Assembly: GCA_964556835.1 (NCBI GenBank)
Contig: CAZKXV010000001.1
Span: forward strand, 1 to 34,433
DNA from: an uncultured Clostridia bacterium
Lineage (GTDB): Bacteria; Bacillota; Clostridia; Christensenellales; CAZKXV01
Reading direction: 5' to 3'
DNA: 34,433 bases
A program made the translations under genes and the position numbers. Below the pieces are notes generated by a model, which made no database searches, was not told where the DNA came from, and saw nothing but the letters and a program-made list of their open reading frames with translations. This document shows, in pieces, positions 6,888 to 29,836 of this stretch (within the stretch, counting starts at the first letter, position 1; the number at the start of each line of letters is the position of its first letter).

Positions 6888-6908
6888 TTAAAGGAAAATA
6901 TGATAATT

Positions 6909-6934
6909 AAGGGGCATTTTAGAATGCCCCTTTT
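6909..6934 (+). terminator. Rho-independent terminator after the M28 peptidase gene
   Basis: AAGGGGCATT-ttag-AATGCCCCTT followed by TTTT/TTGAAT. Confidence 0.7.
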
Positions 6935-6966
6935 GAATAAATAAGGCGGAGAATTTATAGGTATAT

Positions 6967-7626
6967 ATGGCAGAAGATTGGGAAAATTTGATAGAAATTG
7001 AGTCGCATAAGGACTACTTTATTAAGCTTAATAAGTTTATTGATGAAGAATACTCATTTTATGATGTATATCCTATGCGTGAAGATATTTATAGAGCTAT
7101 GAGCCTTACTCCATATGACTTGACGAAAGTTGTTATCTTAGGTCAAGACCCATATCATGCTGAGGGGCAAGCGAATGGCTTGGCATTCAGTGTGCCAGAC
7201 GGAATTGAGTTTCCCCCATCACTTAGAAATATCTTCAAAGAGCTAGTTAGCGATATGGGTATAAGCCCACCAATCATAGGAGATTTGTCTTGTTGGGCGA
7301 AGCAGGGAGTATTATTAATCAATGCTACATTAACCGTTCGGATACATTGTCCCAATTCGCATAGCAATTGTGGTTGGGGCAATTTAACGGATAATATTAT
7401 TTCGCATTTATCTAAATGCAAGGAGAATTTAGTATTTATCTTGTGGGGAAAAAATGCAAGGAGTAAGAAGTCCCTAGTTGATACTTCTAAGCACTTAGTA
7501 ATCGAATCCGTTCATCCTAGTCCACTTTCTGCTTATCGTGGTTTTTTCGGCTCAAAACCTTTTAGTCGCACCAATGAATATCTATCTAAATGCGGGAAAG
7601 AGCCTATCGATTGGCAAGTGAAATGA
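6967..7626 (+). CDS. ung: Uracil-DNA glycosylase, family 1
   Basis: Catalytic GQDPYH motif, LLINATLTV, and C-terminal HPSPLSA leucine-loop motif. Confidence 0.9.
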   Translation: MAEDWENLIEIESHKDYFIKLNKFIDEEYSFYDVYPMREDIYRAMSLTPYDLTKVVILGQDPYHAEGQANGLAFSVPDGIEFPPSLRNIFKELVSDMGISPPIIGDLSCWAKQGVLLINATLTVRIHCPNSHSNCGWGNLTDNIISHLSKCKENLVFILWGKNARSKKSLVDTSKHLVIESVHPSPLSAYRGFFGSKPFSRTNEYLSKCGKEPIDWQVK

Positions 7627-7912
7627 TAGCAAAGTAGATAATCCTATATAATTATAGTAGGGCTTTTATGTAAACCAATTAATTGGATGAATAAATTCTA
7701 GTCCAGTGTGCAATATTATTAGATATGCCCTCTTGTAGACAGAATAAACAAAATTAATATTTATGCAGCGAAATATTTGATTATAACCCCAACTATTACA
7801 CTTTTGTATTGATTTTATTGCTTATGCGGTTTGGTATATGGAATAATTATACATTTATACATTTTCATGAATATTTTTTTAACAAAAAAGGGGCTTTGCA
7901 TAGCCTATTAGC

Positions 7913-9882: not shown

Positions 9883-12800
9883 ATGCCACTAGATAAGAGT
9901 ATAAAAAAAGTTTTAATTATTGGTAGCGGACCTATTGTAATAGGTCAAGCTGCCGAATTTGATTATGCAGGAACGCAAGCGTGTAGGGCTTTGCAAGAAG
10001 AGGGCATTTATGTAATTTTGGTCAATTCCAACCCTGCTACAATTATGACCGATGCAGATATGGCGGACAAGGTCTATATCGAGCCACTTACTCCCGAAAT
10101 GATAAAAAATATCATTAGAAAAGAAAAGCCCGACAGCCTCTTGCCTACATTAGGTGGACAAACTGGTCTTAATTTAGCATCTGAACTTGCGGAAAGTGGT
10201 TTTCTTGAAGAAGCGAATGTAAGGCTTCTAGGTACAAGTGTCGAGACAATAAAGAAAGCGGAAGACCGAGATTCATTTAAGAAGACTATGCTTGAAATCG
10301 GTGAGCCTGTTATAAAATCTGTTATTGTAAACGATATAGATGCTGCTCTGGCATTCGGAGAAGAGGCGGGATACCCGCTAATAGTTCGCCCCGCTTATAC
10401 TTTAGGCGGAACGGGCGGAGGCTTTGCAAATAATGCCGAAGAGCTTAAGGTAATAACTGGTACTGGTCTGGAGGCTAGCCGAGTAACACAATGCTTGATT
10501 GAGAAATCTATCGCAGGTTGGAAAGAGATAGAATATGAAGTTTTGCGTGATAATCTAGGCAATTCTATGACAATATGTAGTATGGAGAATGTCGACCCTG
10601 TTGGTATTCATACTGGCGATGCGATAGTAGTTGCACCCGTGCAAACACTTACAGACAAAGAAAACCAAATGCTTAGGTCAGCTAGCTTGAATATTGTAAA
10701 TGCTTTGGGTGTTAGAGGTGGATGTAATGTACAGCTTGCACTTCATACAGACAGTTCAGAATATGCAATCATCGAAGTTAATCCAAGAGTAAGTCGTTCA
10801 TCTGCGTTAGCATCTAAGGCGACAGGTTACCCAATAGCTAAAGTTGCGGCATTAATTGCAGTAGGATTTAATTTAGATGAGATACCTAATAAGGTAACAG
10901 GCAAAACTGTAGCATCGCACGAACCTGCACTTGATTATATAGTTACTAAGTTCCCAAGATGGCCATTTGATAAATTCACTCAAGCGGATAGAACACTTGG
11001 TACAAGAATGAAAGCAACAGGCGAAGTAATGAGTATAGGAGAGAATTTTGAACAGTCATTTATGAAGTCAGTTCGCTCCTTAGAAATTGGCAAAGACAAA
11101 TTATTTGACAATTCTTTACTTGTGATGAGTGATGAGGAATTATTAGCTAGTCTAATGCCTGCTGATGATAACAGAATATTTAGAGTATGCGAATTACTTA
11201 GGCGTGAATGCAGTATTGATTTGATATATGAAATTACACGCATTGATAGGTGGTTCTTATGGCGTTTTCGTAATATAGTTAGATTAGAAGAGAAATTACG
11301 CACAGAAAAGAAAATTGATGAACAGACAATGATGCAATCCAAAAAATATGGATTTTCTGACCAAGCAATTGCAGATTTTCTGGGCAAGGATATGATGGAT
11401 ATCAGAAAACTTAGATTGAGCTGGAATATAAGACCGGTATTCAATATGGTAGATACCTGTGCAGCCGAGTTTCAAGCTGTAAGTCCATATTATTATACAA
11501 CTTATAGAAAAGAAAGTGAGCATATTCCAAAACCTAGAAAATCCATTCTAGTTTTAGGAAGTGGACCAATTAGAATTGGACAGGGCATAGAATTCGACTA
11601 TTGTTCAGTACAATGTATACGTGCGATTAAGAAAGAAAACTATGATGCAGTCATTATAAATAATAACCCCGAAACAGTCTCTACTGACTTTGATATTTCA
11701 GATAGACTATATTTTGAGCCATTGACTCCTGAAGATGTATATAATGTTATTGATGTTGAGCAACCTGAAGCTGTGGTAGTACAGTTCGGAGGACAGACAG
11801 CGATAAAATTAGCAGAACCCGTACGAGATTATGGATGTAAGATATTAGGCACTTCACTTGAGAACATTGATAGAGCAGAAGACCGAGAGCAATTTGATGC
11901 ATTACTTGAAAAAATCGGTGTTATGAGACCAGAAGGCGTAAGTGTAGTCAATCTATATGATGCGATGAAAGGCGCAGAGAAAGTAGGGTTCCCCGTACTT
12001 GTTCGCCCATCTTATGTTCTTGGTGGTCAGGGTATGGAAATATGTTATGATATTAATGACTTAGAGAAGTATCTTTCTTTTATCAATATTAATGAACAGA
12101 AACACCCCGTACTTATCGATAAATATATCATAGGTAGAGAACTTGAAGTTGATGCTATCTGTGATGGCAAGGATATTCTTATACCAGGAATTATGGAGCA
12201 TATTGAGAGGACAGGCGTTCACAGCGGTGATTCCATTGCGGTATATCCCCCAATTAATGTAACTGAAAGTGATGAGAAGAATTTGATTAAAATAACTAAA
12301 GATATTGCATTAGGGCTTGAAACCTACGGTCTGGTAAATATTCAATATATTCTTAAAGACTCGGAAGTATATGTAATCGAAGTTAATCCCCGTTCATCAA
12401 GAACGGTTCCATATATAAGCAAAGTAACGGGCGTACCCATGGTAGAACTTGCAACCCGTTGCGCTATGGGAGAGACTCTTGCAGATATGGGATATGGAAC
12501 AGGCTTATATAGAAAATCGGGCATTTATGCAGTTAAGGTACCTGTATTTAGTAATGAGAAAATTACTGGTTTAGACTTTTCGCTCTCTCCAGAAATGAAA
12601 TCAACGGGAGAAGTATTAGGCGTGTCTACCGATATGGGCGAAGCACTGTTCAAGGGTCTATATGGTTCGAATATGAAAATGAGTTATTCGGGTGGAGTGT
12701 TTCTAAGTGTCTCTGAGAAATTTAAGTGGGAAATCCTCCCGGTAGCAGTTGGTTTCAAGAAATTAGGCTTTGATATTTATGCAACTGAAGGCACTGCAAA

Positions 12801-17178: not shown

Positions 17179-17208
17179 AGCACACCGCAGTACTGCGGTG
17201 TGCTTTTC
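17179..17208 (+). terminator. Rho-independent terminator after purA
   Basis: Perfect palindrome AGCACACCGCAGT/ACTGCGGTGTGCT followed by TTTT. Confidence 0.8.
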
Positions 17209-17222
17209 TCTTGCCCTATTAG

Positions 17223-17251
17223 TTGTATATGTTTATTCTATGTGCTATAAT
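17223..17251 (+). promoter_or_regulatory. Candidate extended -10 promoter of the DegT-family gene
   Basis: TTGTAT - 17 nt - TATAAT with TGc immediately upstream of the -10. It lies between the purA terminator and the RBS AAGGAG at 17262. Confidence 0.5.
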
Positions 17252-17275
17252 TTGCCTATTCAAGGAGATAGCAAA

Positions 17276-18466
17276 ATGAGCATTAAGTTTTCAAGAGCAG
17301 ACATTACAGAAGAAGAGATTAAAGAGGTTGTTGATACCCTGCATTCAGGATATATTACTACCGGAACAAAAACTAAGGATTTCGAAAAACAGCTTGCAAC
17401 TTTTTGTAATGTGAAGAAAGTCGCCTGTTTGAATTCAGCTACTGCTGGGCTTGAACTAATATTAAGGGTACTCGGAATAGGTGCAGGCGATGAGGTCATT
17501 ACTACTGCTTATACTTATACTGCAACCGCAAGTGTGATAAGTCATGTGGGGGCAAGAATTATATTAGTAGACACACTTAAGGGTAGCTATGAGATAGATA
17601 GTATGGGGATTGAGAATGCAATAACTTCTAGAACTAAGGTAATTATTGCGGTGGATATTGCGGGCAAGATATGCGATTATAATAAGATTTATCAAGCTGT
17701 GGAAGCAAAGGTAGACTTATTTGTGCCTAGTAATGACATTCAAGAGCGTATGGGAAGAATTGCAGTTATTGCAGATGGCGCCCATAGTTTTGGAGCCCAA
17801 AAGAATGGAATACTTAGTGGCAGCTTTGCTGATTTTACTGTATTTAGTTTTCATGCAGGCAAGAATTTGACCGTTGCTGAGGGTGGTGCAATAGCTCTTA
17901 ATGAATGTGATTTCTATGATACTGAAGAAATGTACAAGCAATTTATGATTTTTGGACTACATGGTCAGACAAAGGACAGTTATAGCAAAGAAAAATTAGG
18001 TGCGTGGGAATATGATATTGTGACACTTGGTTATAAATGTAATATGACAGATATCTCTGCAAGTATAGGCAAGATTCAACTAGCTCGATATCCTAAAATT
18101 CTAGAAAGAAGAAAAGAAATAATATCTATATATAATGACGAACTCGGTGACTTAATTGAAGTAATAGACCTATGTAATAATAAGGAATTATCAAGTGGTA
18201 CATTATACATGACAAGAATACCGAATAAGACGGAGCTTGAGCGTAATAATATAATTCTAGCGCTTGCTGAGGAAGGCATTCCTACAAATGTTCATTTCAA
18301 ACCGTTACCTATGTTCACAGCTTATAAGAGGCTAGGGTTCGATATCAAAGATTTCCCTAATGCTTATAACCAATATGCAAATGAAATAACATTGCCCTTG
18401 CATACGCTTCTAACTAATGAAGATGTGTATAAGATTATTAAAGCATTTAAGATATGTATATCTTGA
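17276..18466 (+). CDS. DegT/DnrJ/EryC1/StrS-family PLP-dependent aminotransferase
   Basis: The family PLP-lysine motif is FSFHAGKNLTVAEGG, with LNSATAGLEL upstream. The start is set at the ATG preceded by AAGGAG, because the 17198 start in the ORF track overlaps the purA terminator and the promoter. Confidence 0.85.
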   Translation: MSIKFSRADITEEEIKEVVDTLHSGYITTGTKTKDFEKQLATFCNVKKVACLNSATAGLELILRVLGIGAGDEVITTAYTYTATASVISHVGARIILVDTLKGSYEIDSMGIENAITSRTKVIIAVDIAGKICDYNKIYQAVEAKVDLFVPSNDIQERMGRIAVIADGAHSFGAQKNGILSGSFADFTVFSFHAGKNLTVAEGGAIALNECDFYDTEEMYKQFMIFGLHGQTKDSYSKEKLGAWEYDIVTLGYKCNMTDISASIGKIQLARYPKILERRKEIISIYNDELGDLIEVIDLCNNKELSSGTLYMTRIPNKTELERNNIILALAEEGIPTNVHFKPLPMFTAYKRLGFDIKDFPNAYNQYANEITLPLHTLLTNEDVYKIIKAFKICIS

Positions 18467-18469
18467 TTG

Positions 18470-18498
18470 TTGACAAATACTAATAGTTAGAATATAAT
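18470..18498 (+). promoter_or_regulatory. Consensus sigma-70-type promoter of iolG
   Basis: Perfect TTGACA - 17 nt - TATAAT, 30 nt upstream of the iolG ATG. The RBS is AGAGG. Confidence 0.6.
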
Positions 18499-18527: not shown

Positions 18528-19553
18528 ATGATTAATATTGGAATTATTGGAATGGGCAGAATTGGGCGTGTACATATGGAAAGTATATGTACTAGTGTCC
18601 CTGAAGCGAAAGTAGTAGCTATTGCAGATCCTTACTTAACTAGCGAAACCGAAACCCTTGCCCTAGAGAAATACAAGGTACTTAATGCCTACAAAGATTA
18701 CAAAAAAATCCTATCTGATGATAGTATTGATGCGGTGGTGATTTGTTCATCGACTGATACACATTCAGCTATCTCAATTGAAGCGCTTAAAGCGGGTAAA
18801 CACGTTATGTGTGAAAAGCCTATTGATACTGACTACAAAAGAATAATAAAAGTGGTCGAGGCTGTGAAAGAGAACAGTCATTTGAAATTTCAAGTTGGGT
18901 TTAATAGAAGATTTGACCATAATTTTATGGCACTTAAGGAACAAAGTAAGAATCTAGGTGCTATTCACATTATTAAGATTACATCACGTGACCCTGCTCC
19001 ACCACCAATTGAGTATATCAAAGTATCGGGGGGATTATTCAATGATATGATGATTCATGACTTAGATATGGTGCGTTTTTTGTCCTCATCTGAAGTGGAA
19101 GAAGTTCACGTATATGGCGGAGCCTTAGTAGATAAACGCATAGGCGAGGCAGGCGATATTGATACTGCTATCGTTAGTATGAAATTATCAAGTGGCGCTT
19201 TCGCTGTTATTGATAATTCAAGACAAGCTGTGTATGGATATGACCAGAGAGCTGAAGTATTCTGTGCAAATGGTATGGTATGCTCAGAAAACGATGCCCC
19301 AAGTACAGTGAAAGTAGTTACATCTAGTGGTGTAAATAGTGAAAAACCACTACATTTTTTCCTTGATAGATATATGCAAGCATATGCAAAAGAGCTAAAA
19401 TGTTTCGTAGAAGCAATAATAAATGATACGCCGACTATTTGTAATGAGACTGATGGTCTAAAACCATTCTTGATAGCTAAAGCGTGTGCAAAATCATTAT
19501 TAGAAAGTAGACCTGTGACAATAGCAGAAATTGAAGAAGAGTTAAGCAGATAA
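18528..19553 (+). CDS. iolG: Inositol 2-dehydrogenase (Gfo/Idh/MocA family)
   Basis: Rossmann motif IGIIGMGRIGRVH, then CEKP and VGFNRRFDHNF motifs of the IolG/IdhA type. It is adjacent to iolE/D/B. Confidence 0.75.
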   Translation: MINIGIIGMGRIGRVHMESICTSVPEAKVVAIADPYLTSETETLALEKYKVLNAYKDYKKILSDDSIDAVVICSSTDTHSAISIEALKAGKHVMCEKPIDTDYKRIIKVVEAVKENSHLKFQVGFNRRFDHNFMALKEQSKNLGAIHIIKITSRDPAPPPIEYIKVSGGLFNDMMIHDLDMVRFLSSSEVEEVHVYGGALVDKRIGEAGDIDTAIVSMKLSSGAFAVIDNSRQAVYGYDQRAEVFCANGMVCSENDAPSTVKVVTSSGVNSEKPLHFFLDRYMQAYAKELKCFVEAIINDTPTICNETDGLKPFLIAKACAKSLLESRPVTIAEIEEELSR

Positions 19554-19575
19554 AAAGAATGATATAATATCAAAA

Positions 19576-19616
19576 ATGCCCCACTAGTATGATAGGTAGT
19601 GGGGCATATTTTTTTT
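19576..19616. terminator. Bidirectional terminator between the convergent iolG and iolE genes
   Basis: ATGCCCCACTA-loop-TAGTGGGGCAT, flanked by AAAAA on the left and ATTTTTTTT on the right. Confidence 0.8.
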
Positions 19617-19623
19617 GTATATA

Positions 19624-20514
19624 TTAATAATTAAGTGATTTTGTTATGTAATCATATGCATATTTTGCATAAGCTAAGGGGTTCGCTTTTTTCGGGTCTT
19701 GTTCAGCCTCAACTACTAACCAGCCTGTATAATCATTTTCTTGTAAGACTTTGAATATTGGGTTAAAATCAATATTGCCATCGCTAGGCACAGTAAATAC
19801 TCCTTCGATAACTGAGTCTAGAAAGCTAAGTTCATTGACTAATGCACCAGCAAGTATAAAATTACGAGTATCTTTCAAGTGAATGTGTTTGATACGCTTA
19901 ATATATTTATTAAGCAAGAATAAAGGGTCAATATCATCATAAGAACAATGACCAGTATCGAATAATAAATTGACATATTGAGGATTAGTAGCTTCCATAA
20001 ATCTATCAATTTCAGCTATTGTCTGAATGCCGGTGCACATATGATGATGATAACTCATTACCATTCCTTTGTCGTATGCTATCTTACCTAATTTGTTAGC
20101 ACCTGCAATAACACTCTCCCATTGGGATTCATTAAAAGCAGACTCTCTGACAGTTACAGGAATATTCTTCTGTTGGGTTGAAGTACCTTGTTCGCTAATC
20201 CCTATATTAGTGCAACCTATAGAAAGTAAGAAATCACAGAACTCTATAAATAATTTCTCAGTATATTCGTAAGGCTTAGTTGATAGGTATGTACTGAACC
20301 AAGAATTGCAAATCTTCAAATTTCTTAATGATAATTCATTATTTAGTTCGGTAGCATCTTTTGGGAAACAACCTCCTAATTCAGTACCGCTAAAACCTGC
20401 TTGTGCTACTTCTTCTAGAATTTGTTTGTAACATGTACCTTTTCCAAGTTCGGGTAGGTCATCATTTACCCAGCCAATAGGCGCTATAGCTAATTTAATA
20501 TTGCTTTTGGTCAT
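19624..20514 (-). CDS. iolE: Inosose dehydratase
   Basis: LAIAPIGWVNDD N-terminus, YHHHMCTGIQT, and VVEAEQDPKKANPL motifs match B. subtilis IolE closely. The RBS is AAGGAG. Confidence 0.85.
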   Translation of the reverse strand: MTKSNIKLAIAPIGWVNDDLPELGKGTCYKQILEEVAQAGFSGTELGGCFPKDATELNNELSLRNLKICNSWFSTYLSTKPYEYTEKLFIEFCDFLLSIGCTNIGISEQGTSTQQKNIPVTVRESAFNESQWESVIAGANKLGKIAYDKGMVMSYHHHMCTGIQTIAEIDRFMEATNPQYVNLLFDTGHCSYDDIDPLFLLNKYIKRIKHIHLKDTRNFILAGALVNELSFLDSVIEGVFTVPSDGNIDFNPIFKVLQENDYTGWLVVEAEQDPKKANPLAYAKYAYDYITKSLNY

Positions 20515-20516
20515 CT

Positions 20517-22445
20517 TTAGTATCTCCTTGATTTATTCAATTCCTTTTTCATCGCTTTTGTTGCGATTGTAATACTTTCTTTTTCTGCAATTTCAGCATT
20601 TCCAACTCTCCAGAATGATTCATATCCATCAGTCATAGTCTTAGGTAATACTTTTATATCAATTAAGGTACTGACAGTTTGTTTCTTTGAGTCCTCTATT
20701 GCTTGAATTAATTGTTGTTCATTTTTAACCGTATAAGTAATACAACCATAGGCCTTTGCATTCATTGCATAGTCAACTTTAACTAATTCGCCATTAAGTC
20801 CACTGGCTGTTCTTTTTCTTGTTTCTGTGAAGAAACTACCCATGCCGTGTCCCATTTGTAGATTGTTAATGCACCCGAATGAAATATTATCAAAGACAAG
20901 TACATTTATTTTCCTGTTTTCTTGTATGGAAGTCAAAAGCTCTGAATTAAGCATCATATATGAGCCATCGCCAACAAAAGCATAAACTTCTTTGGTAGGT
21001 TCAGCGAGTTTCGCTCCCAGTGCGCCTGCAATCTCATATCCCATACAGCTATAACCGTATTCCATATGATATGTATTAGGGCTTTTAGGTCGCCATACTC
21101 TTTGCATATCGCCAGGGAGTGAGCCGCTTGCTCCAACAACTATTGCGTCTGTTGCGAGTAAATTATTTATGATGCTAAGAACTCTGGTTTGGGTTAGGGT
21201 AGAGCCATTAATTGCGATATATTCGTCTATTTTATCATCAAGGTGTCCACTTATTTCTGGAATGAAATTATCTTTATACTTAATATTATCTAGTCTATCC
21301 AATTCCTTTATCCAAGCTTTTTTAGCGTTTAAGTATTCGTTAGTATAAGCCGACCTATATGAGATTTCTGCAAGCTCAGAGGCGATAGCTTGTAGTGCGA
21401 CTTTCGCATCAGCACAAACTCTTACAGCGTCTAGTTTATAGCAGTCGAATGCAGCTATATTTATATTGAGATAATCCACATTAGGATTCTGAAAAAGCCA
21501 CTTAGAAGAAGTGGTAAAATCGGTATATCTAGTTCCTACTCCAATAACTAAGTCGGTCTCTTTTGCGATAATATTTGCACTAAGGTCGCCAGTTGTTCCA
21601 ATCCCACCAAGGTTATATGGGTTATCCCAAACTATTGCGGATTTGCCTGCTTGTGTTTCTGCAAAAGGTATATTAAAAGCTTTTGCAAATTCTAGCAATT
21701 CTGCACCAGCCTCGCTATATTTGACACCACCACCACATATTAGTAGGGGTTTCTTTTTTGACTTAATTAATGCTATGGCTTCTTTAATCATATATGGTGT
21801 AGCGGGCGTTCTTTCTATGCGATGCACTCGTTTATCGAAAAAAGAAACTGGATAATCGTAAGCCTCGCCTTGTACATCTTGTGGTAGACAGATTGTTACC
21901 GCACCTGTTTCAGCAGGGCTAGTGAGTACCCGCATTGCGTTAATCATGGAGGACATAAGTTGTTCGGGTCTGGTTATTCTGTCCCAGAACTTGCTTACTG
22001 CCTTAAATGCATCATTTGTGGATACTGTTAAATCGTTAAACTGTTCAAGCTGTTGTAGAACAGGGTCAGGCTGTCTATCTGCGTATACATCTCCCGGTAG
22101 TAACAATAATGGCAATCTATTAGCCGATGCAGTTGCGGCTGCAGTTAACATATTAGCTGCGCCTGGTCCTACTGAAGAGGTGCAAGCATATATTCTCTTT
22201 CTTAGGCTTTGTTTGCCGAATGCGGCTGCAGCATGCGCCATTCCCTGTTCATTCTTCGCTTGATGAACGACTAATCTTCCGCCTCGCTCCTCTAATGCTT
22301 GTCCTAATCCTAATACATTTCCGTGTCCAAATATTGTAAATACTCCCTCAACAAAAGGTTCTTCTCTATCATCGAATGCTACATATTGGTTCTTAAGGAA
22401 TTCTATAAGTGCTTGAGACATGGTTAATCTAATAGTTCTGCTCAT
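20517..22445 (-). CDS. iolD: 3D-(3,5/4)-trihydroxycyclohexane-1,2-dione hydrolase (ThDP-dependent)
   Basis: [20 protein letters not shown]-terminus and ThDP motif [12 protein letters not shown]. The start is set at the ATG at 22445, which makes an ATGA overlap with the iolB stop and has GGGGG upstream. The ORF track gives 22460. Confidence 0.9.
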
Positions 22446-23236
22446 TTTTCTGACCCCCATATTTTCGCATTAGAGTCATTGACCCAAGTATGCTCTTCTA
22501 CAAATGTAGGAGTAATGTATCTGTCATTTTCTAAGTGTCTGATTACCCATACGTATAACATTGCGTAACCGGGTGCTGTTGTCTGGGGATGCGTTGCTCC
22601 TGCGGGTATTAATACGGCATCATTTTCTCTTACTTTCACCACATCTTCGCCTAATTCGCAGAAACCATATCCATTGACAGGATTGAATTTGTAGAAATAT
22701 ATTTCTGGTTGTGGATGATGATGAGGCGGATAACTAGACCATTTACCGGGGTAATCTATCACTTCGCCTAATACTAAGTTTGCATAAGGGGCATTGCTAT
22801 TATCGAATATTGTACGCACATTCCTTGTGCTTGTATCGCCCATTGTACCTTTGCCACGCATTTCAGATGCAACATCTTCTGATGAGTAAAATACAGGTTC
22901 AAATTCGTTATTATTTGTAGTTGCTTGATATACTAACTCCGCTTGTTTGCTAGTGCATATTATCTCGACTTTAACTCCTTTGGGGATATGCAGGCATACA
23001 CAAGATACATTAAATGGATTAGAACGCTCCGCTTTAATACTTTTTCCATTGTAATTGAAAATGACACTGCCTTTCATAAGTAAATATGCACGCTCAAGAG
23101 GTTCTTCATTTACTATTTTATCACCACTTTCGAGAAGAAATAGTCCAAAGTCCATTAATGCACTTTTATAGTTGCCGTTCATTTCAGTAATGCTGTTGTA
23201 TCCTCTGATATAGGGTGAATCTGATCTTATTCTCAT
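22442..23236 (-). CDS. iolB: 5-deoxy-glucuronate isomerase
   Basis: Cupin-type protein with the [16 protein letters not shown] motif of IolB. It is the first gene of the iolB-D-E operon. Confidence 0.85.
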
Positions 23237-23272: not shown

Positions 23273-23301
23273 ATTATACTATAATTTACTAGCTTGTACA
23301 A
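23273..23301 (-). promoter_or_regulatory. Candidate promoter of iolBDE
   Basis: On the minus strand, TTGTAC - 17 nt - TATAAT, about 35 nt upstream of the iolB ATG. The RBS is AAGGAGAG. Confidence 0.5.
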
Positions 23302-23302
23302 G
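23293..23302. promoter_or_regulatory. Candidate operator: perfect 10-bp palindrome overlapping the iolB -35
   Basis: CTTGTACAAG is a perfect palindrome, flanked by TAGCT direct repeats. Confidence 0.3.
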
Positions 23303-23372
23303 TAGCTATATTATTTTTTGTAATAAAAATTAGTATTATTTAATCTAATATGCTTGAATTACAAATATTAAT

Positions 23373-23402
23373 TTGCCATTATTTGCGTAAATGGTGTATA
23401 AT
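23373..23402 (+). promoter_or_regulatory. Candidate promoter of the lacI-gap-pgk-larA-like operon
   Basis: TTGCCA - 18 nt - TATAAT. The spacer contains the near-palindrome ATTTGCGTAAAT (23381-23392) with a central CG. Confidence 0.4.
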
Positions 23403-23439
23403 GAATAAATTATGATGATTATCTTATGTGGAGCAGGAG

Positions 23440-24453
23440 ATGACTAAATACGATGTAGTAACAATTGTTGATATAGCTGAACGTATAGGTGTATCATGTG
23501 CTACTGTTTCACGTGCATTAAATGGCAAAAAGGGTGTTGGAGAGAGAAAACGCAAAATGATAATTGAATTGGCGAACGATTTGTGTTATGAACCAAATGC
23601 TATTGCGCAAGGCTTAAGAGAGAAAGCATTTAAGACTATTGGTTTAGTAATTCCCGATATTGCAAATCCATTATATCCTGCTATAGCTCGTGGTGTTGAG
23701 GACAAGGCTTTAGAATATGGGTATAATGTATTTTTATGTAATAGTAACTGGAGTGTTGAGATTGAGCAGACGCAGATCAAATCATTAAAACAGCTTAGAG
23801 TTGCGGGGTTAATACTTAATCCTACTTCTGATATTTTTGAAGATAATTATAAAGACACTAATATACCTAGTGCATATATTAGTTCAAGGCTAGATGAAAG
23901 GTATAAGCCTTATGTGGGAGTTGATAATGTTCAAGCAGGCTTCATTGCGACTGAATACTTAATTAAATGTGGTTATACTAGAATAGGATTTATCGGTGGA
24001 ACTGCAAAATCTTATGATAGCGAGACTAGATACGAGGGTTATCTCAAAGCGCTTAAACACTATGGCTTAAATTGCGATGAAAGTTTATGCGAATTCGGTT
24101 GGTATAGCTTGAGAAGTGGTAAGAATATCATGACTAAGCTACTTGAACTTGACAATCCATGCGATGCGGTTTTCTGTGCTAATGATACTATAGCTATAGG
24201 GGCGCTGAGCGCTGCTAATAGTATGAATATAAGTGTACCTGATGAGTTAGGTATTATGGGTTTTGATAATATAAGTATGGCAGAAATTCCACAACTTGAG
24301 CTTAGCACAATTTCTATTCCTAAGTATGAAATGGGAGTAGCCGCAGTGGAATTGCTAATGCAAGTTATACAAGGAACAGAGGGCGAAGAGCATAAAGTTC
24401 TTGAACCTGAATTAATAATAAGAAAAACAACAAAAAAATTGTTCGGAGGATAA
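23440..24453 (+). CDS. LacI-family transcriptional regulator
   Basis: N-terminal HTH VTIVDIAERIGVSCATVSRALNG followed by a periplasmic-binding-protein-like sugar-binding core. The ATG at 23440 has GGAG 6 nt upstream. The ORF track starts at the GTG at 23428. Confidence 0.9.
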   Translation: MTKYDVVTIVDIAERIGVSCATVSRALNGKKGVGERKRKMIIELANDLCYEPNAIAQGLREKAFKTIGLVIPDIANPLYPAIARGVEDKALEYGYNVFLCNSNWSVEIEQTQIKSLKQLRVAGLILNPTSDIFEDNYKDTNIPSAYISSRLDERYKPYVGVDNVQAGFIATEYLIKCGYTRIGFIGGTAKSYDSETRYEGYLKALKHYGLNCDESLCEFGWYSLRSGKNIMTKLLELDNPCDAVFCANDTIAIGALSAANSMNISVPDELGIMGFDNISMAEIPQLELSTISIPKYEMGVAAVELLMQVIQGTEGEEHKVLEPELIIRKTTKKLFGG

Positions 24454-24454
24454 G

Positions 24455-25480
24455 ATGAATAAAATTAAAGTAGCAGTAGTAGGATATGGCGTTATAGGTC
24501 AAAGATTAGCAGATGGAGTAAGTTATCAAGCAGATATGGAGTTAGTGGGTATTGTTGATGCCGCTCCAACTCTCACAATGATGACTTTACTAGAAAAGGG
24601 TATGCCATATAAAGTATATGCGGCTTTTCCTGAAGCAAAAGAACAACTTGAAAATGCAGGTATTCCAGTAAGCGGACTAATGACAGACATATTACAACAG
24701 GTAGATGTTGTACTTGATGCAACTTCTGCGGGTATTGGTGCGAAGAACAAAGTGCTTTATGAGAAATATAATGTCAAAGCTATCTTCCAAGGCGGAGAAA
24801 GTAATGATGTGGCAGATGTATTCTTCCATGGATATGCTAATTATGAGAAAGCCTTAGGCAAAAGCTTCTTGAAACTTACTAGTTGCAATACTACAGGTCT
24901 AATTCGTGCGGTTGATTGCCTTGACCGTATGGTCGGCATAGAAAAGATAGCTATTACAATCGTAAGAAGAGTAGCTGACCCTGGTGATTATCATAGAGGC
25001 TTGACCAATGCCCTACAAGTAGATAAAGCTCCTAGTCATCAAGCTCTTGACTTGATGACCATTATGCCACATATCGAGGCTACTGGTATTCTTGTTCATA
25101 CACCTATTACACACGGACATTTTATTACTGTAGTTGCTACTCCGAAAAAAGATATTTCTGTAGAAGAAGCTATTAACGCTTTTAGAGCTCATCCAAGAAT
25201 TAAGATGGTTACAATCGACCAAGGCTTCTTAGGTAATGCTTCTGTATTCAAATATGCTAGAGACTGTGGCAAACTGCGTGGTGATGTATATGAGATATAT
25301 GTATGGGAAGATTTAATTGTGAAATCTGGCAAAGATATTATGTTTGGTATACATATTCCACAAGAATCCGTAACTATTCCAGAGACAATAGATGGTATCA
25401 GAGCACTTATGAATATGCAAATTGATAGAATTGAAGCTACTAATGAAACCAATAAATACTTAGGTATGGAGCAGAAATAA
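24455..25480 (+). CDS. Class II (archaeal-type) glyceraldehyde-3-phosphate dehydrogenase homolog
   Basis: The protein is collinear with archaeal GAPDH: VVGYGVIGQR, GIGAKN..KAIFQGGE, catalytic TSCNTTGL (Cys144, nt 24884-24886), VRRVADP, and QESVTIPE. The bacterial GapA signature SCTTN is absent. The RBS is GGAGGA. The gene starts 1 nt after the lacI stop. Confidence 0.85.
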   Translation: MNKIKVAVVGYGVIGQRLADGVSYQADMELVGIVDAAPTLTMMTLLEKGMPYKVYAAFPEAKEQLENAGIPVSGLMTDILQQVDVVLDATSAGIGAKNKVLYEKYNVKAIFQGGESNDVADVFFHGYANYEKALGKSFLKLTSCNTTGLIRAVDCLDRMVGIEKIAITIVRRVADPGDYHRGLTNALQVDKAPSHQALDLMTIMPHIEATGILVHTPITHGHFITVVATPKKDISVEEAINAFRAHPRIKMVTIDQGFLGNASVFKYARDCGKLRGDVYEIYVWEDLIVKSGKDIMFGIHIPQESVTIPETIDGIRALMNMQIDRIEATNETNKYLGMEQK

Positions 25481-25481
25481 T

Positions 25482-26720
25482 ATGAAAATGAACAGGTTAT
25501 CCGCCTATGACTATTCTAATAAGACCGTACTAGTCAGAATAGATATTAATTCGCCAATAGACAGTATTACAAAGAAAATTGTAAGTAGGAACAGATTAAC
25601 AAAATCTATTCCCACTTTGAAATATTTGATTGACAGTGGTGCTAAAATCGCAATTATAGCTCATCAAGGGGACACTTTAGATTACTATAACTTAATCTCT
25701 ATGCAAGAGCATAGCGAGATACTAAGCGAGTTATTAGGACAAAGCGTAAACTACATAGATGATGTAGCAGGCGATTGTGCAATCGAAGCAGTTAAGAACT
25801 TGAAGAGTGGGGAAATAATATTGCTAGGAAATTTGAGGTATCTTGCCGAAGAAATTTCCACATTTGAAGAGGTAGTGAAACTTACCCCAAATGAAATGTT
25901 AGATTGCTACCTTGTAAGAAGATTGGCGCCATTATTCCAATATTATATAAATGATGCTTTCAGTGCAGCGCATAGAAATGCACCATCAATGGTCGCTTTT
26001 CAAGAGCTATTGCCGAGTGTAGCGGGCGAGTTGTTTTATACAGAAATAGAGAACCTTGACCGTATTATGAGTGCACCTAATAAACCATCTGTGTTCGTTC
26101 TTGGCGGTGCTAAGATTTCGGATGCTTTCGGAATGATGGAACAAGTTCTTATGAATGGTACAGCGGATACTATTCTAACCGCTGGTGTGACAGGGCTTGT
26201 CTTTATGATAGCAGATGGTATAGATGTAGGAAAGATGACAAACAAGTTCTTGGAAGATAGAGGATTAACTAGTTTCATCGATGATGCTAGAAAATATCTT
26301 AAAACCTATCCAAATAAAATTAAGTATCCAATAGATATATGTTATGCCGAAGCGGGGATACGTTACGAAGTTACTTGTGATAAGTTACCACTTGAAAAGA
26401 GTTTTCTTGATATAGGTTCATTAACTATAGCAAGTTACCAGAAAATATTATTGGAGGCGAAAACCATATTTGTAAATGGTCCAGCAGGGGTATACGAGCA
26501 AGAAATATTTGCGATAGGAACTTGTGATATTTGGAAAGCTATAGCCGCTAGTAATGGGTACAGCGTTATAGGTGGCGGTGATACCGTTAGTGCAGCATCG
26601 AAATTTATAGACCTTAAAGATATTGGTTATGTATGTACAGCAGGGGGTGCAATGGTTCGTTACCTGAGTGGAAAGACGCTTCCCCTTATAAAGGCGATGC
26701 AGAAAGCTTACAAAGAATAA
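25482..26720 (+). CDS. pgk: Phosphoglycerate kinase homolog, archaeal-like
   Basis: PGK motifs VLVRIDINSPID, IIAHQG, LLGNLRY..EE, NDAFSAAHR, VLGGAKISD, and IGGGDTVSA are present in order. Length is 412 aa. The gene starts 1 nt after the GAPDH homolog. Confidence 0.85.
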   Translation: MKMNRLSAYDYSNKTVLVRIDINSPIDSITKKIVSRNRLTKSIPTLKYLIDSGAKIAIIAHQGDTLDYYNLISMQEHSEILSELLGQSVNYIDDVAGDCAIEAVKNLKSGEIILLGNLRYLAEEISTFEEVVKLTPNEMLDCYLVRRLAPLFQYYINDAFSAAHRNAPSMVAFQELLPSVAGELFYTEIENLDRIMSAPNKPSVFVLGGAKISDAFGMMEQVLMNGTADTILTAGVTGLVFMIADGIDVGKMTNKFLEDRGLTSFIDDARKYLKTYPNKIKYPIDICYAEAGIRYEVTCDKLPLEKSFLDIGSLTIASYQKILLEAKTIFVNGPAGVYEQEIFAIGTCDIWKAIAASNGYSVIGGGDTVSAASKFIDLKDIGYVCTAGGAMVRYLSGKTLPLIKAMQKAYKE

Positions 26721-26750: not shown

Positions 26751-28004
26751 ATGATTACTCATAATCTTAAGTTTAATAAAGAAATCCTAAGTTTCGATAT
26801 TGAAGAAGACAACTTAATTAGCTGTCTTATTCCTAATGCTATAGATTATGAATTTAAGAGTACAGAGGCGGTTAGAAATGCTATACTTAATCCTATAGGA
26901 ACAGCTCGCTTAAAAGACATTGTAAGTAGAGGTGAAACTGTTGCAATAGTTACTAGTGATATTACTAGACCTATGCCATCTAAGACCGTTCTTCCATTTG
27001 TGATAGAAGAATTACTTGAGGGCGGTATCAAAGAGTCAGATATTTTCATTGTGCTTGCACTAGGAAGTCATAGAAAGCACACAGCCGAAGAAATGAAATA
27101 TTTAGTAGGTAATGATATTTATAATAGTGAAATAAGAGTAATGGACAGCGATATGGAAGATTGTGTTTGCTTAGGTAAATGTAAGAATGGAACACCAGTA
27201 GATATTTATACGCCAGTAGCTGAAGCGGACAGAGTTATTTGCTTGGGTAATGTCGAATTTCATTATTTTGCAGGATACAGCGGAGGTGCGAAAGCACTTA
27301 TGCCAGGGGTATCAAGTTGGGAAGCAATACAAGCTAACCATTCTAATATGGTCAAGGCGGGTGCAGAAGCGGGTAATTTGATTTCTAATCCAGTTCGCCA
27401 AGATATTGAAGAAACAGCAGAATTTATTAAGATAGATTTTATTGTTAATGTTGTACTAGATGATAAGAAAGAGATTGTAGGGGCAGTAAGTGGACATTAT
27501 TCTAAAGCACATAGAGTAGCTTGCAAAATGTTAGATAGACTATACTCTGTAGATATTGAAAAGAGAGCTGATATTGTGGTCGTTTCGGCAGGCGGGTATC
27601 CTAAGGATATCAATATATATCAAGCACAAAAAGCGTTAGATAACGCAAAAGGCGCTGTTAGAGAAAGCGGGATTATAATTCTAGTAGCAAGTTGTAAAGA
27701 GGGGTTTGGAGAGCATACTTTCGAAGAGTGGATGACTACAATGACACCTGATAAAATGATAGATACAATCAAAAAAGATTTTAAGCTTGGGGGACATAAG
27801 GCAGCAGCTATCGCTATGATACTCAAGAAAAATAAGATTTTTCTTGTTAGTGATTTGGATAATGCGATAGTTCGTAGTATTGGTTTTGAGCCATTTGCGA
27901 CTGTTGATAATGCTCTTTATCAAGCATATAAGGAGATAGGGGAGAAGGCACAACTATACATTATTCCTTATGGAGGCTCAATTCTACCTAAACTAAAGAT
28001 ATGA
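26751..28004 (+). CDS. LarA-family nickel-pincer-nucleotide-dependent 2-hydroxyacid racemase/epimerase homolog (DUF2088 type)
   Basis: SDITRP, LGSHR (His107), FHYFAGYSGGAK (His171, Lys181 at nt 27291-27293), and ANH (His197). The spacing is the same as His108/His174/Lys184/His200 of L. plantarum LarA. Confidence 0.85.
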   Translation: MITHNLKFNKEILSFDIEEDNLISCLIPNAIDYEFKSTEAVRNAILNPIGTARLKDIVSRGETVAIVTSDITRPMPSKTVLPFVIEELLEGGIKESDIFIVLALGSHRKHTAEEMKYLVGNDIYNSEIRVMDSDMEDCVCLGKCKNGTPVDIYTPVAEADRVICLGNVEFHYFAGYSGGAKALMPGVSSWEAIQANHSNMVKAGAEAGNLISNPVRQDIEETAEFIKIDFIVNVVLDDKKEIVGAVSGHYSKAHRVACKMLDRLYSVDIEKRADIVVVSAGGYPKDINIYQAQKALDNAKGAVRESGIIILVASCKEGFGEHTFEEWMTTMTPDKMIDTIKKDFKLGGHKAAAIAMILKKNKIFLVSDLDNAIVRSIGFEPFATVDNALYQAYKEIGEKAQLYIIPYGGSILPKLKI

Positions 28005-29836
28005 AAAAAAAGAGTTATATTATATTTTTCTTGATTATACTAGCTTTAATTGCTAGTCTTTCTGCATGTAATTTCAAAGATAATCAAACAATTACAATTA
28101 GTTTCCATAATAATGGAGGAACTGGAGTTATGTCCAATATGGAAGTAGATATTAATTCAGATGTGACCATTATTGAGAATACATTTACTAGAGAGGGATA
28201 TGATTTCAGCGGTTGGGCATTTTCGGCTGAGGGAGAAGCATTAGCTTATAGTGGCGAAGAATACCGTATAGGTGAATTGGATATTGAACTATACGCTGTA
28301 TGGACACTTAGCCCTAATATAATAATCTTTCATTCGAATAATCAAATTGATATTACTACAAACATTGATATATTTTATGGTGAGATAATAGCTCTGCCAT
28401 TTAATACTTTTGAAAATGAAGGATATATATTTGGAGGTTGGGGATTAACTGCGGACTCAGAAGTTATTTTTGATGATGGTGCAAATTATACTTTTAATAT
28501 CAGACAAGATATTAACTTATACGCAATCTGGTATGAGTTGAAATATACAGTATCGTATAATACAACGAATGGATCGGGCGAAATGTCAGACTACCTAGCT
28601 TATGAAGGAGAGTCATTGACCTTAACTTTATGTAACTATTCCTATAATCATCGTGACTTCTGCGGTTGGGCAACGGTTACGGGAGGCGAGGTAATACACC
28701 TAGATGGTGCAGAAATTGAGATTAATGGTGATTTGAATTTATATGCAGTCTGGGCGATAGTTGATTATACTATCACTTTGGATTATAATGAACTTGCTAC
28801 TAATACTACTCTAGAAGTGCAAGCATTAGGTCAAGTTGCACTACCTCTTGCAGAGGAAATTACTGGTATGAGTTTTGATGGTTGGTATTTCGATAGTCAA
28901 TATACGCAATCCATAAACTTCCCATATGCAATAATCAGCGACCATACTATATATGCGAAGTATTCTCCATTATATGTAGTCAACTTCTATGATTATGATG
29001 ATACTCTACTTAAGACTTCCTATGTGCAAACTGGTGCTAATGCTGAAGCACCAAGCGAACCTACAAGAGAGGGATATCAATTCGACTGCTGGAATAATAG
29101 CTATATAAGCATTACTTCATCAATAGATATTTATGCTCAGTATAATGCTCTAGAATATACGGTCACATTTAACTCAAACGGTGGAACTGGAACAATGCAA
29201 GATTTTTCCGTTTTATACGAAACTTCAGCAAATTTACCTGCAAACCTTTTTGTTAGAACAAATTATAGATTTCTAGGATGGTCGCAGGAAGCACTGGGCA
29301 GTGCTATATATGAGGATAATGGTATCTTTACTATGAATTTATTAGGAGTCACACTGTATGCTATATGGGAATATGGGATAGAATACTTATATTGCGAACT
29401 TTCAAATGGTTATACTATTACTAATGTACTACAGGGCACTAAAATGGTGGAGATTCCTAATACATATGATGATGGCTTAAATGGTACAGCAGAGGTATTA
29501 ATTATAGGCGAGGAAGCCTTTATGAATAATGATGTACAATCAGTTATCTTAGGTGAAAACATAACCAAAGTTGAGATAAATGCTTTTAAGGGTTCAACTG
29601 TAAGTGATATAACTTTGAATGAAGAGTTAACAGAGATAGGAAATTATTGTTTCAAAGATTGTATAAGTCTAACTTCAATAATTATTCCAAGTGGTGTGGA
29701 TATAGTGGGTATTGGCATCTTCTCGGGGACAAATACTGATGTATATTGTATACGTGGTATAGAAGGAGTGGGCTGGGATACTTCTTGGGACAATGAAATG
29801 GAAGGTATCGTTATATGGAATTATACGGAGGTCTAA
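28001..29836 (+). CDS. Surface lipoprotein with about 6 Listeria-Bacteroides-type (Flg_new) repeats and a C-terminal BspA-type leucine-rich repeat region
   Basis: Signal peptide with lipobox LSAC (Cys23). Repeating ~70-aa units of the form F..NGGTG.M......REGY.F.GW........LYA.W. The C-terminus has LRR units (I.I..NAF...T.L..I.IP..V..IG). The ATGA overlaps the upstream stop. Confidence 0.8.
   Translation: MKKKSYIIFFLIILALIASLSACNFKDNQTITISFHNNGGTGVMSNMEVDINSDVTIIENTFTREGYDFSGWAFSAEGEALAYSGEEYRIGELDIELYAVWTLSPNIIIFHSNNQIDITTNIDIFYGEIIALPFNTFENEGYIFGGWGLTADSEVIFDDGANYTFNIRQDINLYAIWYELKYTVSYNTTNGSGEMSDYLAYEGESLTLTLCNYSYNHRDFCGWATVTGGEVIHLDGAEIEINGDLNLYAVWAIVDYTITLDYNELATNTTLEVQALGQVALPLAEEITGMSFDGWYFDSQYTQSINFPYAIISDHTIYAKYSPLYVVNFYDYDDTLLKTSYVQTGANAEAPSEPTREGYQFDCWNNSYISITSSIDIYAQYNALEYTVTFNSNGGTGTMQDFSVLYETSANLPANLFVRTNYRFLGWSQEALGSAIYEDNGIFTMNLLGVTLYAIWEYGIEYLYCELSNGYTITNVLQGTKMVEIPNTYDDGLNGTAEVLIIGEEAFMNNDVQSVILGENITKVEINAFKGSTVSDITLNEELTEIGNYCFKDCISLTSIIIPSGVDIVGIGIFSGTNTDVYCIRGIEGVGWDTSWDNEMEGIVIWNYTEV

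Follow-up and report, generated by a model that had tools for sequence, protein, structure and literature searches.

The 34,433-bp contig CAZKXV010000001.1, referred to here as the window, is one whole contig (~36% G+C) of a metagenome-assembled genome (MAG) from an uncultured Clostridia bacterium. It encodes four enzymes of myo-inositol degradation, IolG, IolE, IolD and IolB, next to a divergent operon for a LacI-family regulator, a paralogue of archaeal-type glyceraldehyde-3-phosphate dehydrogenase (GAPDH), a paralogue of archaeal-type phosphoglycerate kinase (PGK) and a LarA-family racemase (Table 1); the two paralogues are named here GAP* and PGK*. The cluster is best explained as a variant of myo-inositol catabolism, in which the classical upper half of the pathway is joined to a lower half that replaces IolC, IolJ and IolA. 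It is very probable that the genes iolG, iolE, iolD and iolB are functionally linked with GAP*, PGK* and larA, their linkage being conserved rather than due to chance. The route that we propose from the gene content, in which a transketolase would split 2-deoxy-5-keto-D-gluconate (DKG), GAP* would form D-malyl phosphate, PGK* would yield ATP and D-malate, and LarA would deliver L-malate, appears reasonably likely. Such a branch of inositol degradation is apparently widespread among anaerobic bacteria and undescribed; no description of a malate-semialdehyde branch was found in the searchable literature, a coverage that leaves out subscription journals.

The upper half of the pathway is the classical one. 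Homology shows IolG, IolE, IolD and IolB to be the predicted enzymes for the conversion of myo-inositol to 5-deoxy-D-glucuronate and on to DKG, and IolG, IolE and IolD pass the NCBI curated equivalog cut-offs by which they were judged. IolB scores below the cut-off of TIGR04378 (97 versus 205 bits) and is 43% identical over 251/263 residues to the annotated 5-deoxy-glucuronate isomerase of the canonical iol operon on a Bacillus tropicus plasmid, the source of the reference iol proteins (order iolG-iolC-iolA-iolD-iolE-iolJ-iolB). All four proteins are full length, in agreement with a preliminary description of this DNA in which the genes were called intact. The junctions within iolB-D-E are operon-like, with a 19-nt overlap between iolB and iolD and 2 nt between iolD and iolE. 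Separating iolE from the convergent iolG is a terminator-like hairpin that was missed by the hairpin scan owing to its 10-nt loop.

Linkage of these genes with GAP* and PGK* recurs in related genomes. The genes around GAP* were clustered in 73 related loci, a sample from the 80 loci most similar to the query, and the proportions given here are thus no unbiased census; IolG counts are slight underestimates, as simple ORF calling (ORF, open reading frame) wrongly chose, in three loci (cluster 22), an ORF antisense to iolG. In 66 of the 73 loci, GAP* is followed immediately by PGK* in the same orientation. LarA is encoded near GAP* in 42 of them and malic enzyme, the commonest further partner, in 26; LarA, malic enzyme or a D-malate/tartrate dehydrogenase is found in 46. 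At least two of IolG, IolE, IolD and IolB lie near GAP* in 28 loci (iol-linked loci), and iol genes share a directon with GAP* in 21 loci, which are species-level genomes from several phyla. Among these 21 are Clostridium magnum, C. pascui, C. peptidivorans, C. ganghwense, C. tanneri, Caloramator and Fonticella, as well as Breznakiella, Sphaerochaeta, Treponema, Victivallales and Bacteriovoracaceae. Of the 28 iol-linked loci, 15 encode a split transketolase (TKn and TKc), typically in the order GAP*-PGK*-TKn-TKc-IolB-IolD-IolE-IolG. Several Clostridium species, Caloramator and Fonticella have one gene order in common, in which a binding protein and two ABC genes precede (malic enzyme), GAP*, PGK*, TKn, TKc, IolB, IolD, IolE, IolG and (LarA), and in Breznakiella homolactica iolG-iolB-iolD-iolE-GAP*-PGK*-LarA stands behind a divergent LacI. 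As single operons are widespread in relatives, the divergent layout of the window is a rearranged version.

The enzymes of the classical lower half are missing from these neighbourhoods. With canonical Bacillus queries, tblastn gave no match to IolC, IolJ or IolA in the window, and no transporter is found among its annotated ORFs, that is, all those of at least 100 amino acids, which were annotated against family models; both absences had been noted in the preliminary description and are borne out. The window likewise encodes no transketolase, malic enzyme or D-malate dehydrogenase, and no sugar-binding protein. Across the 73 related loci (1.25 Mb), IolC and IolJ had zero tblastn matches and IolA a single weak one (28% identity) in a locus without iol genes, and none in the iol-linked loci; in the same search IolG, IolD, IolE and IolB each matched ~30 loci at 43–75% identity. 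When 108 neighbours that carried no other label were compared with Pfam, they proved to include regulators and transporters, with only three weak PfkB matches (best E-value 2.9e-12), and a family search of ten neighbours of ~300 residues, picked by size in the hunt for these weak matches, revealed no kinase. Patterns of PROSITE style gave no match for PfkB, aldehyde dehydrogenase (ALDH) or class II aldolase in the iol-linked loci, a result superseded by tblastn. Transport genes of the ABC, MFS or sugar-transport type are encoded in related loci.

The chemistry of a lower half without IolC, IolJ and IolA can be derived from known structures. Isomerization of 5-deoxy-D-glucuronate gives a ketose with the C3 hydroxyl on the left and the C4 hydroxyl on the right, which is the D-threo arrangement that transketolase requires. 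A cut of DKG between C2 and C3 leaves OHC-CH(OH)-CH2-COO- with D (R) configuration, and oxidation of this aldehyde gives D-malate. DKG is a near-isostere of xylulose-5-phosphate, and D-malate semialdehyde is isosteric with D-glyceraldehyde-3-phosphate. DKG, whose terminal carboxylate takes the place of the phosphate in xylulose-5-phosphate, would serve as the transketolase donor; the transketolase is cluster-encoded in many relatives and would, in the organism of the window, presumably be the housekeeping enzyme. Its C2 unit would pass to an aldose phosphate, leaving (R)-3-hydroxy-4-oxobutanoate (D-malate semialdehyde), which GAP* would oxidize with NAD+ and phosphate to D-malyl 1-phosphate. 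Phosphorylation of ADP by PGK* would produce ATP and release D-malate, which LarA would racemize to L-malate for entry into central metabolism. In relatives, L-malate may be taken up by the co-encoded malic enzyme, or D-malate directly by a decarboxylating D-malate dehydrogenase. Such a route would spare the ATP cost of IolC and gain one ATP by substrate-level phosphorylation.

GAP*, for which we propose the role of an NAD-dependent phosphorylating D-malate-semialdehyde dehydrogenase, is labelled type II GAPDH by NCBIfam of June 2026, and its closest PDB entry is P. horikoshii GAPDH (2CZC). The catalytic residues Cys140 and His219 and the anion-site pair Arg167/Arg168 are invariant in 73 members and most of the inorganic-phosphate site is kept, so the protein should still be a phosphorylating dehydrogenase. 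In all 73 members Lys33 is replaced by Asp and His194 by Gln, with His193 kept; relative to archaeal type II GAPDH, His299 is replaced by Pro. Lys33 is the NADP determinant, and His193 and His194 form the phosphate-site pair, of type II GAPDH (PMC12041015, citing Charron 2000). The uniform change of Lys33 to Asp suggests use of NAD+ and a catabolic role. In a tree, the bacterial GAP* proteins form a tight clade apart from archaeal type II GAPDH. Relatives at 69–79% identity occur in at least 585 species genomes, this being the number confirmed among 599 pattern matches listed in a scan of species-representative genomes; the best 120 matches are 72–79% identical and belong to Clostridia, Spirochaetota and other groups.

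PGK* has P. horikoshii PGK (2CUN) as its closest PDB entry. The catalytic residues and those that contact the substrate 2-hydroxyl (D23, N25, R38, K215, E343 and D374) are conserved in 61–62 of 62 members, and H62, R122 and R170, which together with Arg65 form the basic patch for the 3-phosphate, are also kept in this set. A departure is seen at Arg65, which is Asp in 58 of the 62 sequences and Ser in the other 4; Pro66 is replaced by Thr and Glu119 by Gly relative to archaeal PGK. Arg65 is one of three arginines that bind the 3-phosphate of 3-phosphoglycerate, and Asp23 and Asn25 bind the substrate 2-hydroxyl (PMC7729029). Loss of Arg65 means one positive charge fewer, which fits a carboxylate in place of the phosphate. 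PGK* is proposed to be a D-malyl-phosphate:ADP phosphotransferase and would catalyse the ATP-forming step.

Malate as the product is indicated by the third enzyme of the divergent operon. The window LarA passes the cut-off of the malate-racemase model and scores 370 bits against the characterized Mar2 structure (6D6Z), compared with 234 bits against lactate racemase. Mar2 is a characterized malate racemase whose role in vivo was left open by its discoverers (PMC7583248). Three iol-linked loci encode a tartrate/D-malate decarboxylating dehydrogenase (TIGR02089, 521 bits, above cut-off). In two of these (L049 and L080), LarA and malic enzyme are absent within nine gene positions of GAP*, and in the third (L032) both are also absent from a map that extends over nine genes to one side of GAP* and ten to the other. 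Non-orthologous replacement of this kind suggests that the product is D-malate. The conversion of malic semialdehyde to D-malate and on to pyruvate has been established experimentally in carnitine degradation by A. baumannii (PMC11353897).

GAP* and PGK* also occur where no iol genes are found. A GABA-type (γ-aminobutyrate) aminotransferase lies near GAP* without iol genes in 10 of the 73 loci, and the Sinanaerobacter cluster comprises, besides GAP* and PGK*, a sigma54 activator, a GABA-aminotransferase, malic enzyme, LarA and a TRAP transporter. The Sinanaerobacter protein, at 79% identity, is the nearest relative of the window GAP* among the matches listed, and the cluster aminotransferase matches the GABA (C4) transaminase equivalog. 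In a neighbour-joining tree of GAP*, iol-linked, aminotransferase-linked and malate-only contexts are intermixed. Clostridium magnum DSM 2767 (L038 and L058) has two sister GAP*-PGK* modules, one within a full inositol/transketolase operon and the other arranged as malic enzyme-GAP*-PGK*-LarA without iol genes. Taken together, the intermixing in the tree, the sister copies of C. magnum and the aminotransferase-linked nearest relative make a single GAP* function across contexts likely. The GAP*-PGK* pair would then be a module common to other feeders, for example a GABA-type aminotransferase that would produce the same aldehyde from 4-amino-3-hydroxybutyrate. That the conversion of D-malate semialdehyde through D-malyl phosphate to D-malate and ATP is a natural, previously unrecognized substrate-level phosphorylation has, in our estimate, slightly better than even chances. 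In this proposal it would be a carboxylate-for-phosphate copy of lower glycolysis, derived from archaea, and would act as a hub in at least 585 bacterial species for malate semialdehyde from inositol (by transketolase), from 4-amino-3-hydroxybutyrate and from other sources. It would also account for the occurrence, in many anaerobes, of iolG, iolE, iolD and iolB in the absence of iolC and iolJ.

Further contexts were observed among the related loci. Three loci (L015, L018 and L046, with GAP* at ~9479, ~10001 and ~4959) combine GAP*-PGK* with a D-2-hydroxyacid dehydrogenase, an Asp/Glu-type racemase, malic enzyme and LarA, and L018 and L046 additionally encode an aldehyde:ferredoxin oxidoreductase. 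In Gammaproteobacteria (L057, L059, L065, L033, L064, L075 and L085; GAP* at ~10001–11005 in most), the pair has a different conserved context, comprising a cupin protein, two proteins without Pfam match (c17 and c19), an Amidohydro_2 protein and an S15 peptidase; LarA, malic enzyme and iol genes are all absent from these loci. This context points to another feeder pathway. Several iol-linked loci (L008, at 6827–7660; L086; L043, at 2602–3438; L051) encode extra xylose-isomerase-like TIM-barrel proteins with weak similarity to IolO-type epimerases, and second GFO/IDH/MocA dehydrogenases are present in the same loci. These extra proteins probably channel other inositol isomers into the pathway.

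In the window, the lacI-GAP*-PGK*-larA operon, which has gaps of 1, 1 and 30 nt between its genes, diverges from iolB across 191 bp, and the placement of the GAPDH, PGK and LarA homologues behind LacI given in the preliminary description is thereby confirmed. Promoter-like sites face both ways from this region. The palindrome AGCTTGTACAAGTA (23291–23304), which occurs once in the window, overlaps the −35 element of the iolB site and is inferred to be a candidate LacI-type operator. Acting within the 191 bp that separate the two divergent operons, LacI probably governs both of them. Proteins that cluster with the window LacI (25–50% identical) are encoded in 10 of the 73 related GAP* loci. Co-regulation of iol and GAP* genes is implied by the fused operons of other species, that is, by comparison and not for this organism itself.

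Several points weigh against the route through D-malate. Transketolase is absent from the window and from 13 of the 28 iol-linked loci, so a housekeeping transketolase has to be assumed there, and iolC, iolJ and iolA could be encoded elsewhere in the source MAG. All steps after IolB are deduced from genomics. Because Arg167/Arg168 are unchanged, the active site of GAP* by itself does not exclude glyceraldehyde-3-phosphate as a substrate. Seven iol-linked loci have neither LarA nor D-malate dehydrogenase in the stretch seen, some of these loci being incomplete, and larB, larC and larE were not identified among the annotated ORFs of the window, where no search was aimed at these genes. Upstream of iolG, no copy of AGCTTGTACAAGTA was found within 3 mismatches, and matches across the window are at chance level.

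The preliminary description had raised the possibility that a variant lower branch oxidizes an aldehyde derived from inositol through an acyl phosphate with formation of ATP. The acyl phosphate and the ATP are strongly supported by the directons shared with iolG, iolB, iolD and iolE in 21 genomes and by clusters without iolC and iolJ, but neither of the aldehydes suggested there, 5-deoxyglucuronate and malonate semialdehyde, is favoured. In the former case, which we consider unlikely, GAP* would oxidize the C1 aldehyde of 5-deoxy-D-glucuronate to 5-deoxyglucaryl phosphate, PGK* would yield ATP and 5-deoxyglucarate, and LarA would epimerize the 2-hydroxy centre. This chemistry is formally possible for a 2-hydroxy aldehyde with a distal carboxylate, sugar-acid 2-epimerases exist in the LarA family (PMC7583248, PMC11770544), and the 13 iol-linked loci without a cluster transketolase would be accommodated. 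However, the clusters retain IolB, which removes this very aldehyde by isomerization, and in many of them transketolase sits between PGK* and IolB; conservation of the one and frequent co-occurrence of the other would be pointless. The window LarA scores as a malate racemase, with Mar2 as its closest solved relative, a C6 diacid would leave malic enzyme and D-malate dehydrogenase without a function, neither a dehydratase nor an aldolase that could act on 5-deoxyglucarate is present, and nearly identical GAP* proteins occur in aminotransferase clusters that have no hexuronate source. Malonate semialdehyde, the aldehyde of the classical pathway, would arise if DKG were cleaved to a C3 unit and malonate semialdehyde, from which GAP* and PGK* would produce malonyl phosphate and then malonate and ATP; a β-alanine aminotransferase would yield the same aldehyde and could fit the aminotransferase-linked clusters. 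Its release would require IolC with IolJ, another aldolase or a transaldolase, none of which is present. Malonate is achiral and leaves the racemase without a substrate, malic enzyme and D-malate dehydrogenase are unexplained, the cluster aminotransferase matches a C4 transaminase, and PGK* retains the 2-hydroxyl-binding residues Asp23 and Asn25, which speaks for an acyl phosphate of a 2-hydroxy acid. We regard the malonate scheme as very unlikely.

Two further explanations were considered. GAP* and PGK* could be true glycolytic isoenzymes that handle triose phosphate derived from IolJ in a classical pathway whose iolC, iolJ and iolA lie elsewhere: both proteins pass the GAPDH and PGK family models with catalytic residues kept, the window covers one contig of the source MAG only, and split iol clusters are known (PMC9430895). 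This is improbable, given that none of the 73 loci contains iolC or iolJ, that no triose phosphate forms in the clusters where the pair stands beside GABA-type aminotransferase, malic enzyme and LarA, that the phosphate-binding Arg65 of PGK has become Asp or Ser, and that malate racemase and D-malate dehydrogenase are left unexplained. In the one published assay on a bacterial type II homologue, a clostridial ‘type II GAPDH’ was inactive towards glyceraldehyde-3-phosphate with both NAD+ and NADP+ (PMC6543838), which also speaks against glycolytic isoenzymes, but the protein may lie outside the GAP* clade, and the negative assay could reflect poor expression; both reservations lessen the support that it lends to the D-malate route. 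The enzymes might instead work in the biosynthetic direction, activating malate and reducing it to malate semialdehyde for anabolism, with the iol adjacency not being catabolic. Archaeal type II GAPDH and PGK are mainly gluconeogenic and the reactions are reversible. This direction is nevertheless highly improbable, as the change of Lys33 to Asp suggests NAD over NADPH (residue role from PMC12041015), the clusters contain uptake transporters and regulators of catabolic type (LacI, AraC, RpiR and sigma54 activators), and downstream malic enzyme or D-malate dehydrogenase points to degradation.

The remainder of the window is filled by housekeeping genes (metG, tatD, rsmA, nagA, ung, dapF, carAB, dapL, purF and purA) and two surface proteins. 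No composition break separating the iol/GAP* region from these surroundings was seen across the window. GC skew is strongly positive over plus-strand genes and reversed over the minus-strand iolB-D-E and the gene at 30589–33498; its sign tracks the strand of the genes, indicating that the skew follows the coding strand. The surface-protein gene next to larA overlaps the larA stop codon by 4 nt and may thus be co-transcribed with the metabolic operon. The DegT-type aminotransferase gene upstream of iolG was considered as part of the system, in inosose amination, and rejected: none of the related loci has a counterpart beside iolG, and in the window a separate promoter-like site serves iolG. This aminotransferase is probably unrelated to the pathway, amination of scyllo-inosose being conceivable. 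The GTG start predicted for it falls within the terminator hairpin of purA (17179–17204), so the true start is probably further downstream.

Table 1 Genes and sites of the window that are discussed in the text, in order of position.
Feature	Position	Strand	Evidence and remarks
ORF, weak aldo-keto-reductase-like match	4430-5650	+	54 bits; between nagA and ung
ORF, weak M42-aminopeptidase-like match	5634-6887	+	28 bits; between nagA and ung; overlaps ORF 4430-5650
DegT/PseC-type sugar aminotransferase	17198-18466	+	TIGR03588 273 bits, below cut-off; directly upstream of iolG
Promoter-like site directly upstream of iolG	18470..18498	+	TTGACA-17 nt-TATAAT, 12/12 consensus matches; match only
iolG, myo-inositol 2-dehydrogenase (predicted step 1, inositol to scyllo-inosose)	18528-19553	+	TIGR04380 428 bits (cut-off 355); GFO_IDH_MocA domains; 48% identity to Bacillus IolG
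Bidirectional terminator-like hairpin between iolG and iolE	19572..19616	.	Perfect 11-bp stem ATGCCCCACTA/TAGTGGGGCAT with A-run and T-run flanks; read from sequence
iolE, myo-inosose-2 dehydratase (predicted step 2)	19624-20514	-	TIGR04379 365 bits (cut-off 290); 49% identity to Bacillus IolE
iolD, thiamine diphosphate (ThDP)-dependent trihydroxycyclohexane-1,2-dione hydrolase (predicted step 3, to 5-deoxy-D-glucuronate)	20517-22460	-	TIGR04377 930 bits (cut-off 715); 64% identity over 643 residues to Bacillus IolD
iolB, 5-deoxy-glucuronate isomerase (predicted step 4, to DKG)	22442-23236	-	PF04962 (KduI/IolB) 171 bits
Promoter-like site for iolB-D-E	23273..23304	-	TGTACA-16 nt-TATAAT at 23300-23273
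Promoter-like site for lacI-GAP*-PGK*-larA	23373..23402	+	TTGCCA-18 nt-TATAAT; consensus match only
LacI-family regulator, first gene of the divergent operon	23428-24453	+	PF00356 and periplasmic-binding domains; no equivalog cut-off reached
GAP*, archaeal-type (type II) GAPDH paralogue	24455-25480	+	NF003251 394 bits (cut-off 185)
PGK*, archaeal-type PGK paralogue	25482-26720	+	PF00162 348 bits
larA, LarA-family nickel-pincer malate racemase (predicted D-malate to L-malate)	26751-28004	+	NF052593 (LarAH6 malate racemase) 541 bits (cut-off 500)
Surface-type protein	28001-29836	+	Listeria-Bacteroides repeats and BspA-type leucine-rich repeats
Surface-type protein	30589-33498	-	DUF5050 and MBG domains

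The proposed pathway shares features with several known systems. The classical Bacillus subtilis-type pathway (IolG-IolE-IolD-IolB-IolC-IolJ-IolA) has homologous first four enzymes, at 43–64% identity between the window and Bacillus tropicus, and the same substrates as far as DKG, but continues with IolC (5-dehydro-2-deoxygluconokinase), IolJ and the CoA-acylating IolA, which the window and related clusters lack; its aldolase cleavage is C3 + C3, whereas the transketolase cleavage proposed here would be C2 + C4, with no ATP invested. In the sulfo-TK pathway of sulfoquinovose degradation, a non-phosphorylated anionic ketose is the transketolase donor, the transketolase is cluster-encoded and often split, and the C2 unit enters the pentose-phosphate pool. 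The likeness to the D-malate route lies in the donor, a non-phosphorylated ketose with the anionic group at its far end, and in the transfer of C2 to the pentose-phosphate pool. In sulfo-TK the anionic group is a sulfonate and the aldehyde is reduced or excreted, whereas here it is a carboxylate and the aldehyde would be oxidized with a gain of ATP, and the window encodes no transketolase. The inositol route of Thermotoga maritima likewise bypasses IolC, IolJ and IolA but differs in enzymes and intermediates, running through 5-keto-L-gluconate and tagaturonate; it is not known to involve IolD or IolB, GAPDH/PGK paralogues or malate.

Malate semialdehyde and its acyl phosphate have precedents of their own. 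The enzymes of a synthetic malyl-phosphate pathway were reportedly derived from aspartate kinase and aspartate-semialdehyde dehydrogenase, and are said to work in the reductive direction, with activation of the carboxyl that is distal to the hydroxyl, so that the semialdehyde is the regioisomer 2-hydroxy-4-oxobutanoate. In outline, as given in one report of that route to 2,4-dihydroxybutyrate (PMC5481828), malate, a malate acyl phosphate and malate semialdehyde are connected by a kinase/dehydrogenase pair, as proposed here; the enzymes described in that outline, a malate kinase and a malate semialdehyde dehydrogenase, are engineered, whereas those of the window are natural genes. The A. baumannii L-carnitine pathway (PMC11353897) shares (R)-malic semialdehyde and D-malate with the proposed route, and its D-malate-specific decarboxylating dehydrogenase (isopropylmalate/tartrate dehydrogenase family) is of the same type as that in three related iol loci. 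There, oxidation by a non-phosphorylating enzyme of the ALDH superfamily gains no ATP, whereas a GAPDH/PGK-type pair would conserve energy, and D-malate meets a dehydrogenase in place of the nickel-pincer racemase of the window. Archaeal type II GAPDH and PGK (PDB 2CZC, 1CF2 and 2CUN) have in common with GAP* and PGK* the fold family, the GAPDH Cys/His, the PGK catalytic residues and an adjacent gene pair for acyl-phosphate chemistry, but serve central metabolism, whereas GAP* and PGK* are embedded in catabolic operons.

If the proposed route is true, the known energy-conserving reactions would be joined by a new one, and metabolic engineers would be interested in its naturally occurring malate-kinase-like and malate-semialdehyde-dehydrogenase activities. 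It would also give a physiological role to the nickel-pincer malate racemase and to D-malate. A 2026 study of the hen gut described inositol-assimilating Megamonas that have iolG, iolE, iolD and iolB but no iolC or iolJ, and left this unexplained (PMC13617567); for genomes with only iolG, iolE, iolD and iolB, the route would supply the missing steps. For anaerobes, it would provide an ATP-positive fermentation of inositol, which originates from phytate and is abundant in the diet and in soil.

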